Part shown: positions 30,701 through 33,700 of the stretch, one piece after another
Layout: each line of letters opens with the position of its first letter
Position numbering within the stretch: position 1 is the stretch's first letter
From: Lingula anatina
Taxonomy: Eukaryota; Animalia; Brachiopoda
DNA length: 64,000 nucleotides
Direction: 5' to 3'
NCBI GenBank assembly: GCA_051362555.1
Contig: CM120645.1
Coordinates: forward strand, 16,864,001 to 16,928,000
Program-made: the position numbers and the translations under genes
Notes under the pieces: model-generated
What the model saw: the letters and a program-made list of their open reading frames with translations, nothing else
What the model was told of the DNA's origin: nothing
Database searches by the model: none

Positions 30701-33700
30701 ATTTGCATACTCTCTACTGACTCACCATTTCAAGTGTAGAACACTGTCTGTGTGGGCCTCCTGCTTTGTTCTTTAAACATATAAGCTTAGACATATCAGG
30801 ACTGAAGCGTGGACTGCGTACGGCAGCATCCATTGTACTGATGGCCACTGAAGTACACAAATTGCACTAACAGACTATGACCCATGACCTTTTTGTTTCA
30901 GTATACCACATGTTATAACTCACCAGGACTAGTGTACTACACTGGCAATAGGCGCCACCTGATTTGTTAGCTAAGTAAGCCAGCTTGGTCATGTCGGGAG
31001 ACAAGCGAGGACTACGTGCTGCATCATCATTTGTGGGACTGATGGCAACTGAAGCATACAAACTTAAAGGGATAACAACTCATATGAGATTAAAAATTCC
31101 ACAATAAACAGATTGAAACAACATTATTTCATATCATACGCATTATAATAAATCTAATTTTACTACCAAAACAGAGATTTTCACAATTATCCTGAAATCT
31201 GTGGTTGCCATTGGACCATGTGTACCTTCAAAGATGGCTACCTTCTGTAATAATCTCTTAAGATCTCTCAAAATGAAGAGTTGTTATCCCTTTGGTTTGC
31301 AGCTCAATGGACTGTTAAGGTTTAACTATTTCTGATCAGTTCACTGCCATAATGACAAGATTTCATGAACACAATGTGAGCTAGCTAAACTGGGTTTAGG
31401 AGCAGATGCAGGCCAGCTTCTTTCTTTCCAAAATTCCAAACTTATATTCACAATCTTACTGCAACCTTGGATTTTAGCTTTTATTTTTCCCTATGATTTT
31501 GTAAAAAATTGTAATTTTCTCAAAAAAAAAAAAGAACTTTTGTTTACTGCATTTTGTAGAGCTTGTAAAGCATTAAAGTGAAGGTGGTTTCCCTTTTGTG
31601 TTTGCCATACAAATGCGCTTACTCCTGCTGCATGTACAAACCCTGAGGCAGTGCCGCCTCTCTGATCCTCTAATTAACACATCTTTTAGTTTTATTTACT
31701 TCTATTGATAAAAAGACCATTGAAGTTACCTCTGTGCTGCATAGCCCATTTTATTACTGTAAAATTTCTACAACTGTGGAGTTTGCTGCTGACTCTAGTG
31801 CCCAAATTATACACTGATAGATATTTAGTAGTAATAGTATAGGATGATTAGATAAAAATAATTAACATAACTCAGACTTTTAATGGATATGAAATGAAAA
31901 TAAAGCTTTTCTGAAAAATATGTAAAAGATAAATAATGTGCTGTCAAATATGCTTCATGTAAAATTGCCTATGTAAATATTTTCCCAGAGGATTAACTTC
32001 TTGCCTCTGTACATTTGAAACTAATATGGCCAGATGCCTGTGTGACATTGATTTAACACAAGTCTAAAGCCCTGACCTAATGTACACCTAAATTAAAGCT
32101 TAAATTGCACTATTAGTCACTGCATTCTTCTGCATCTAAATTGACCAAAAAAAGAAACATAGATTTCCCATGGGACTGAAGCCTAGTTGAAACTTTCTAC
32201 ATTCCCACTGCAATATTACAGGATGGAAGCTAATATGGACAGGCACCTGTGAGACACTGATTTCCCAAGGGTCTAAAGCCTAGTTAACACTTTCTACATG
32301 CCCAGTATATACACGTAATCAAAATTTCACAGTGATTTACACTGGTATCATTAACCTATTATTAAGTATTAATGCTGAAAATGTTTAGTGGACTTTCATT
32401 ATTAAATTGGTTGTCTGCCATTTTTAGGTTGTTTTAATGTCACTTTTTTTATCAGTTTTTACATTTGTCTGCCCATTTGATAGCTTTGCTGCCTTTTTAT
32501 AAAAATTATGTAAGCATTTCAATATTTTTTACAGAAATACATGTAAATACTATTGTGATATATTAATATAGTTTCTCTTCCACTCTGCAATCACAGCTGT
32601 CCATGGCCAGTAGACCTTCTATGGATGTCCATGTAGGTCACGTATAATACCTTCTATGTTCTGGTTCCTACAACCTATCCTCATTATCAGTGGTAACATA
32701 TACTTTTGTTAACATCAGTATTGTGACATATAAGATTACCATAAACTTTTCATTTTTCACACTAAAGCTATACTTAATGAAACTCTTGGTCACTCTATGA
32801 CCCTTCTCAATGTGTGTTACTTTTTGTTGGTATAGCTTTAATTTACTGTAGAAAGTAAAAAGTTCAATCTGATAAATTATCAACAGACGAACTTCCATCA
32901 GACCATCTGTACTGTGACATAATTTGTTAGAGTTGAATGTCGGCAGTATTTTCTATAAGCTCTGGAATGTCTTCACTTTGCCACTTTTCTCTGCCACCAC
33001 CAGGTGGCCAGCCGGGTTGATGGCTAATGATGATGGATAAACCAGCCCATCATCCTTAGTGGCAATGTATCTGATAAACTCTCCATGTGGACTCAGTGCC
33101 ACTATTCTGTTGTTATCCCAGTCAGCAATGAAGATATGACCATAGCTGTCTGTGCACACTCCACATGGTGTCCTCAGCTGACCATCACCACTGCCATATG
33201 TGCCATACTGGTACAGTTGATCACCAGTAGGTGACAACACATGTACACAGTCATTGCCACAGTCTGATATCACAATGTTATCATTCACATTGTTCACTGT
33301 GATGTACTCTGGGTATTTACACATACTGAGTGGAATAGTGTTCAGGTGGTGTCCACTGTCTGCATGGAATGTAAAGATGGATTTCCTCTCTCTGTCACAC
33401 ACCATCACATGACCTTGTCTGTTTACTGTAATACCTGATGGCATCTCCAGTTGGCCCTGACCCATGGTTGTCACCTGCTGACCTTTGGTGGAGAACACTT
33501 TGACACAGCCGTCATCCCGTGATGTTATATACATTTCACCAGTCTGTGACACAGCCACATCAAATGGTCTGCTTATTTTAATCTTATACTTGAACTCTCC
33601 AGCATGTGTGAACATTTTTGTTTTGTCATCTCCATAATCCACAACAAACACTCGTTCCTCATCTATGGCCAACCCAGATATGTACATTGCTCTGTCATCT

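Follow-up and report, generated by a model that had tools for sequence, protein, structure and literature searches.

Results

The APEH gene and its surroundings

The window analysed here, the whole 64,000-nt stretch of Lingula anatina DNA, contains a multi-exon APEH gene on the minus strand, modelled as 23 exons between 39833 and 21706 and translated from the exon at 38231 onward; one exon near the 5′ end of the gene is unplaced, and the translation used is partial. The 766-aa Lingula protein aligns over its full length with pig APEH (PDB 7px8; E 1.3e-209) and matches the Pfam families APEH_N and Peptidase_S9, and the features of an APEH (S9C) enzyme are present: a propeller, an alpha/beta hydrolase domain with a GxSxGG motif and a full-length match to mammalian APEH. 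The gene houses the exon pair A/B that is the subject of this study (Table 1). A second pair, C and D, consists of frame-compatible alternatives located in the hydrolase domain, which are identical at 54 of 103 nt and saturated at synonymous sites.

Several other features share the locus. The 5.5-kb intron upstream of A contains, on the same strand, an intronless gene for a 595-aa TRIM protein with RING, B-box and NHL repeats; the RNA reads that fall on it show many fixed differences, and part of them probably derive from paralogues. The same intron holds two copies, 79% identical, of another repeat with high summed contig depth. There are two tandem arrays: one is built from the 3′ end of an APEH exon together with its donor, and the short RefSeq Lingula isoforms end by running into it; the other lies within an APEH intron. 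On the plus strand, exon-like frames converge on APEH and resemble what we take to be a leucine-rich-repeat/guanylate-kinase gene.

Table 1. Features of the locus, with positions counted from the first letter of the window.
Feature	Position	Length	Strand	Remarks
77-nt tandem array	37150-37722	7.4 copies		repeats the 3′ end and donor of an APEH exon
Upstream constitutive exon	36583..36623	41 nt	minus	5534 nt before A
Other repeat, two copies	31508-31639 and 35985-36118			in the intron upstream of A
Nested TRIM gene	32953-34740	595 aa	minus	intronless
Single-copy intron sequence beyond the element	31296..31345		minus	resembles the intron before B
Multi-copy non-coding element (T2/Kolobok-like MITE)	31068..31291	224 nt		in the acceptor region of A
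Right terminal inverted repeat	31278..31291	14 nt	minus	followed by TTGG (31292-31295), a degenerate target-site copy
Proposed complement of acceptor B	31219..31238			MITE interior; not a significant partner
Left terminal inverted repeat	31068..31081	14 nt	plus	starts AGGGA; preceded by TTAA (31064-31067); 20-33 nt upstream of A
Exon A (upstream, probably minor, derived copy)	31048-30924	125 nt	minus	GGAY against GGPH in relatives; splice sites, frame, RNA depth
A/B intron	30848..30923	76 nt	minus	shortest of 22 modelled introns; next 125 nt
Exon B (downstream, major, ancestral-like copy)	30847-30726	122 nt	minus	residues 323-363 of the 766-aa protein
Downstream constitutive exon	30450..30507	58 nt	minus	
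161-nt tandem array	28654-29635	6.1 copies		97% matches; in an APEH intron
Exon C (pair 2)	23279..23381	103 nt	minus	used by both RefSeq models reaching that region
Exon D (pair 2)	22631..22733	103 nt	minus	homologous to C, frame-compatible
Exon-like frames	about 12600-19750		plus	converging on APEH

A duplicated pair of frame-incompatible exons

An earlier note on this DNA, made from its letters, had described two duplicated exons of 125 and 122 nt, both of length 3n+2 and only 76 nt apart, and the coordinates, AG/GT ends and homology all agree with that description. A and B are neighbouring homologous exons of similar length and the same phase, identical at 84 of 122 aligned nucleotides and 26 of 40 aligned residues; they differ in length by only a 3-nt indel, and A retains an open frame and intact splice sites. 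The homology extends beyond the exons, such that a unit of about 200 nt, comprising exon and flanking intron, is present twice. When all 16 combinations of A/B and C/D were translated, only the four with exactly one exon from each pair reached the C-terminus, while joining A to B leads to a stop at residue 210 and skipping both to a stop at residue 148 (numbering of the partial translation). The up to four isoforms suggested in the note would be allowed by the frame; both RefSeq Lingula models that extend to pair 2 contain exon C. For the APEH propeller, these results support a duplicated exon pair whose members are incompatible in frame. The proposed comparison of substitution rates gave pN 0.25 and pS 0.51 (Fisher p 0.01), with a corrected dN/dS of 0.30-0.35 over four gap placements at a dS of about 0.9, and a wide interval (bootstrap pN/pS 0.27-0.88). 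The excess of pS over pN shows constraint on the pair, as judged from the sequences, and such a pairwise ratio does not report on selection on A itself.

Use of the two exons in RNA

Six RNA runs bearing the species label of the window were examined, using 6-26% of each run and listing junctions supported by 3 or more reads. The junction from B to the downstream exon, which skips 218 nt, is covered by 10, 10 and 11 reads in runs X12, X13 and X18, that is 31 reads in all three of the runs whose splice junctions were listed, and in X13 a further loose end of 10 reads passes from B into the sequence of the upstream exon, showing B spliced on both sides. Exon depths for A and B, converted from bin depths by arithmetic, are 1.6 and 14.1 in X12, 1.6 and 13.0 in X13, 0 and 14.5 in X18, 2.4 and 13.7 in X11, and 1.0 and 10.7 in X14; the sixth run, X17, is uninterpretable for A, with repeat-derived reads falling in the same bin. 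The reads on A, which amount to about 2 per run and may stem from one fragment, have the same mate strand as those on the other exons, the adjacent intron bins of X12 and X13 hold no reads, and the X13 reads on A end exactly at the A donor (12 letters in the bin, or 2 x 6). No junction involving A, the A-to-B junction included, was found at the threshold of 3 reads, a threshold that the depth of A itself does not reach. B is the main exon in RNA, and A is probably a minor spliced exon at about 10%. The proposal that the two exons are mutually exclusive agrees with the frame, which either exon alone preserves, and with the splicing of B on both sides; A has only exon-confined reads and no junction of at least 3 reads, and transcripts that join A to B may exist below that threshold. 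The converse possibility raised at the time, that only one exon is ever used, agrees with the 0 reads on A in X18, and less well with the four runs in which the depth of A is about a tenth of that of B.

Protein databases contain both versions of this region. A profile built from the two exon peptides returned one significant protein among the three matches listed, Lingula anatina XP_013413674; this protein begins inside exon A, matches 56% of it at 100% identity and then runs on into the following exon. Exon B is used by XP_013413673, the 766-aa RefSeq protein of the same cluster. The two proteins have several residue differences in the parts they share, with a scaffold of the same length, and by their sequences look like two loci or haplotypes rather than annotated isoforms.

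The exchanged residue

In the predicted model (mean pLDDT 83), exon B encodes the end of one propeller strand and three further strands, with a loop between the last two that carries Pro354-His355, aligned with Pro324-His325 of the pig enzyme. Pig His325 is described as lining the S1 pocket (PMC9749117) and as hydrogen-bonding the Phe274/Cys275 barrier that narrows the substrate groove (PMC9214879); PMC12514842 contains no mention of it. Exon B thus keeps the Pro-His of pig APEH (7px8), whereas exon A has Ala-Tyr at this position. Of the 74 aligned rows, which include many near-duplicates, 70 have His in this column, and the remainder are one Tyr, which is exon A, one Val from a gapped model, and two gaps; among cluster representatives from outside Lingula it is His in 22 of 22, with Tyr found only in exon A. 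We infer from this comparison that the A isoform would have altered specificity or activity. The earlier description of the propeller as “substrate-gating” understated the case, as the exon carries the residue matching the S1-lining His325.

Lingula APEH differs from the pig enzyme in having two exon pairs and also in a motif elsewhere, at about 24921-24932 in the exon 24933-24845, where it reads NYGGS in place of the NYRGS found in 71 of 74 aligned APEH rows. Both RefSeq Lingula models have NYGGS, so this is not an error of the window.

The inverted repeat consists of transposon ends

The branch-point and pyrimidine region of A had been said to have an inverted repeat with a 16-nt perfect core in the upstream intron, and this repeat is present at 31066-31081 and 31278-31293. 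It is the only case that is not a TA repeat among the 40 longest perfect inverted repeats of the window with arms within 1 kb, and it gives acceptor A the strongest upstream partner of the gene’s 23 acceptors (-38.4 kcal/mol; next -29.4). The repeat is beyond chance, yet it is explained by a repeat element: the 16-nt core comprises the 14-nt ends of the element and two bases of its target site.

The evidence for the element comes from DNA reads and their contigs. Across successive bins, the summed depth of X4 contigs is 2393 (31048-31106), 516, 1802, 25727 (31225-31283), 219 (31284-31342) and 93, against a single-copy depth of 91-96, and X10 reaches 469-741 at 31092-31109 and 9794 at 31243, with single-copy sequence at about 50-57. 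Summed contig depth is not copy number, and on a rough reading these values correspond to tens to hundreds of related copies. Among the X4 joints listed, seven of eight link the left part of the element (31081-31115) to its right part (31229-31269), which argues that other copies share both ends around different middles. The left arm is found after CTTAA with unrelated flanks in eight X4 contigs (agreement 0.61), and a variant of it occurs in 160 X17 and 46 X18 reads. The other copies listed differ from the one in the A acceptor at 9-14 of about 70-83 nt, and the 64-kb window contains no further copy of the 224-nt element. At A itself the element lies in place and ungapped in the X4 contig 30237-31468, in which all 8 gap letters listed fall outside the exons and the element, and no empty site was seen: X4 and X10 DNA both carry an arm of the element in place, the left one in X10.

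The element is short, dispersed and present in many copies, with AGGRR-type terminal repeats, shared ends and unrelated flanks; its target site reads TTAA on the left, as it does ahead of the arm in other copies; on the right side it is TTGG. T2-family MITEs, described in Xenopus and presumed to be non-autonomous Kolobok elements, are defined by TTAA and AGGRR (PMC6004289), and the Lingula element resembles them in being short, non-coding and multi-copy, with TTAA at its left end and the AGGRR motif in its inverted repeats. It differs from the Xenopus elements in belonging to a brachiopod family, in its 14-nt repeats and in the degenerate target-site copy on the right. A high-copy MITE at 31066-31293 was the case that the earlier note had raised against its own proposal, and DNA depth, the joints and the TTAA/AGGGA boundary identify this repeat as the ends of a multi-copy MITE.

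Order of duplication and insertion

The single-copy sequence beyond the element is probably the displaced upstream part of A’s original acceptor region, judging by its likeness to the intron before B. In an alignment anchored at this point, which was post hoc and chosen after viewing the alignment, 63 of 8751 intronic and exonic windows score as well; a first test of homology between flank and intron gave a weak result, with a shuffle p of 0.048 and 684 of 5834 windows. Taking the likeness to B’s intron as real, the simplest history would be a duplication of about 200 nt followed by insertion into A’s acceptor. B has a 6-nt gap at the position of TTAA, so the site is absent from it, and with TTGG on the right of the element, the order of insertion and duplication is a matter of parsimony; a loss from B is a possible alternative. 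The flanks of the insertion are weakly self-complementary, with a flank-only duplex of -9.4 kcal/mol, and extend the stem to -36.5 kcal/mol; the last 10 nt of the displaced sequence lengthen it by about 9 pairs, onto the pyrimidine tract. This self-complementarity may reflect chance, target preference or selection.

Predicted structure at the two acceptors

In partition-function folding, acceptor A (positions -33 to -1) is the least accessible of the 23 acceptors, with 0.15 unpaired against 0.29 for the next, and its stem has 26.5 expected pairs; the exon-pair region as a whole folds with z -2.6. When the element is removed in silico, the openness of the last 20 nt of A’s acceptor rises from 0.24 to no more than 0.33, and with the far arm blocked it is 0.19, so the masking predicted for the pyrimidine tract is no specific effect of the MITE. 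The low accessibility of the acceptor agrees with the low use of A, and the MITE stem may bury the acceptor and lower the use of A. In human U2AF1, by contrast, mutating similar inverted repeats at duplicated exons is reported to have no effect on splicing (PMC5224494). The RNA stem proposed over acceptor A is predicted as a strong one, and its core is the terminal repeat of a MITE; an evolved complement is not supported.

A complement of the acceptor of B, read within the same upstream intron, had been proposed as the other half of the arrangement. Its letters are as quoted, but its pairing is at the level of chance: it reaches -19.0 kcal/mol with acceptor B, another window within the same 450 nt reaches -20.4, as do 12 of 100 shuffles, and two of 22 other acceptors, those of the constitutive exons E8 (-24.5) and E16 (-20.5), have equal or better partners. 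Four foldings gave 0.0 expected pairs between this stretch and acceptor B, also with the A stem blocked (pseudoknots lie outside the model), and it favours partners within the element, with 8.6-11.1 pairs; it is family sequence, found at many loci. The folding of the pair region that had been suggested as a check predicts the A stem and not the proposed B stem. In the models, a second stem for B and a switch between competing structures are not supported. Nor is the claim that RNA stems mask the two acceptors in turn, the A stem being MITE ends and the B partner a chance-level match never predicted to form. The arrangement also departs from docking and selector systems, with two unrelated partners, of which that of B is at chance, and with alternative structures that are not both predicted. 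A match of 31203-31210 to the exon A junction (-12.2 kcal/mol) was rejected as weak and lying inside the element, and neither the C nor the D acceptor has an unusual upstream pairing partner.

Discussion

We consider it likely, with a probability of roughly 0.65, that A and B are a tandem duplicate with B as the principal exon and A as a minor one, that the two are kept exclusive by their frame and the very short intron between them, and that the inverted repeat is the two ends of a MITE, predicted at most to dampen A. The duplicated unit of exon and flanking intron is evident in the sequence, as are the frameshift and early stop that follow from including both exons or neither. Given these premature stops and the established biology of NMD, which is reviewed for mutually exclusive splicing in PMC6071210 and treated also in PMC4165533, transcripts of this kind would be expected to decay. 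Direct splicing of A to B would also be disfavoured by distance, a steric limit of about 50 nt between donor and branch point being described as a vertebrate threshold (PMC7969005); C. elegans is reported to splice introns of about 40 nt (PMC4165533).

The sequence of the 76-nt intron fits such hindrance. Motifs resembling branch points (NTNAY) occur only at 8, 11, 39 and 46 nt from the donor, and if B’s branch point is one of the two away from the donor, at 39-46 nt, as is probable, it lies under that limit, and A-to-B splicing would be sterically hindered. After the duplication, the 224-nt TTAA-targeting MITE would have landed 15-19 nt upstream of A’s AG. Its ends, with the self-complementary flanks, are predicted to form a stem of about 26 bp over the branch-point and pyrimidine region of A and to weaken this exon. 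What A isoform is made would carry Tyr at the position of the S1-pocket His and may have a different substrate preference or less activity.

An unlikely reading, though the best placed of the rivals, is that the MITE has been exapted, its terminal repeats and flanks forming a selected stem that keeps A low, possibly in a regulated way, thereby controlling an isoform whose S1 pocket is altered. The two arms are still perfect (14/14) while the other copies listed have diverged, the stem runs about 9 pairs past the element onto the pyrimidine tract, the element is retained in place in the X4 contig and its left arm in X10, and the X4 differences listed number none in 30790-31061 against at least 18 in 30237-30725; A is, moreover, minor in four of the five interpretable runs and absent in the fifth. 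But any MITE has complementary ends, the samples are only a few percent apart, so that presence of the element is weak evidence of selection, no compensatory change was seen among them, removal in silico alters the openness of the last 20 nt little, and the inverted repeats of U2AF1 are an example of similar structures that could be mutated without effect on splicing (PMC5224494).

Somewhat less probable again is that exon A is a decaying duplicate, with its few reads reflecting splicing leakage in a gene that effectively has one exon here. This would account for the want of an A junction at threshold, the 0 A reads in X18, the loss of the His that 22 of 22 representatives share, and the tolerance of a transposon in the acceptor. 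It sits poorly with an open frame, intact splice sites and a single 3-nt indel after divergence to a dS of about 0.9, with X4 and X10 contigs that cross A without gaps, with use at about 10% in four runs, and with a RefSeq model that joins A to the next exon, although that model may be ab initio. A bolder extension of exaptation, which we hold to be speculative and slightly less probable still, has the MITE repeats co-opted as a masking stem that rations A, which swaps an otherwise invariant S1 His for Tyr; together with pair 2, the single gene would then make tetramers of mixed substrate specificity, its splicing being controlled by transposon-derived sequence. The two-stem switch, in which two intronic elements pair with acceptors A and B in turn and RNA structure picks the exon, is very improbable and by the modelling largely refuted: both complementary stretches exist and their pairings would cross, hence they could be alternatives, but the B pairing is at chance, with 0.0 expected pairs whether or not the A stem is blocked, its putative partner is family sequence found at many loci that prefers partners within the element, and B is dominant, so its acceptor is not usually masked.

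As a reading in which exclusivity rests mainly on frame and intron length, the tandem duplication places Lingula APEH with known cases. OGDH exons 4a/4b (PMC7969005) and C. elegans clusters (PMC4165533), so far as those accounts describe them, share homologous exons of equal phase in a two-exon cluster, a short intron and a frameshift upon double inclusion or skipping; unlike them, the present case concerns a new gene and phylum and has a MITE in the upstream acceptor. With the docking/selector and bidirectional systems of Dscam1, 14-3-3zeta, Mhc and srp, as outlined in PMC6071210, it shares long intronic complementarity beside one of two duplicated exons. Unlike those systems, it has no shared docking site and no second significant stem, its arms derive from a transposon instead of the duplication, and the acceptor would be hidden by the stem, not exposed. 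The titles and abstracts searched, which mostly did not extend to subscription papers, contained no report of mutually exclusive exons in APEH or of APEH splicing in invertebrates, and searches by title and abstract found no MITE or transposon stem at mutually exclusive exons. The A/B pair is a genuine exon duplication with uneven use of its copies; it belongs to a known kind, and for APEH it is new.

The locus thus offers a lineage-restricted exon duplication of a familiar type, and also a caution, as an inverted repeat that stands out at an alternative acceptor may turn out to be the two ends of a transposon. Because the two exons differ at a position that in the pig structure belongs to the S1-pocket lining, a difference in substrate preference between the isoforms can be tested directly. 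Should the MITE stem prove to set the level of A, the gene would offer a clear example of a DNA transposon that provides the structure tuning a duplicated exon.

Outside Lingula, we found no sign of the exon pair in 10 APEH clusters that include lancelets, ticks and molluscs, a set without another brachiopod; in the 61 members listed (of 74 read), same-species isoforms are identical over this exon. When exon A was compared with cluster representatives, all 150 matches listed fell on at least two matched stretches with 32-54% identity, a pattern that points to generic propeller repeats, and no brachiopod orthologue was among them. A search of transcript contigs for short exon-A peptides gave no candidate.

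Exon B itself varies among the samples. X10, X17 and X18 carry five substitutions, at 30791 and 30831-30836, through which exon B reads Pro-Thr and Thr, as exon A does, at three positions, while the other runs match the window there; these A-like residues may be a retained ancestral state or the product of gene conversion.
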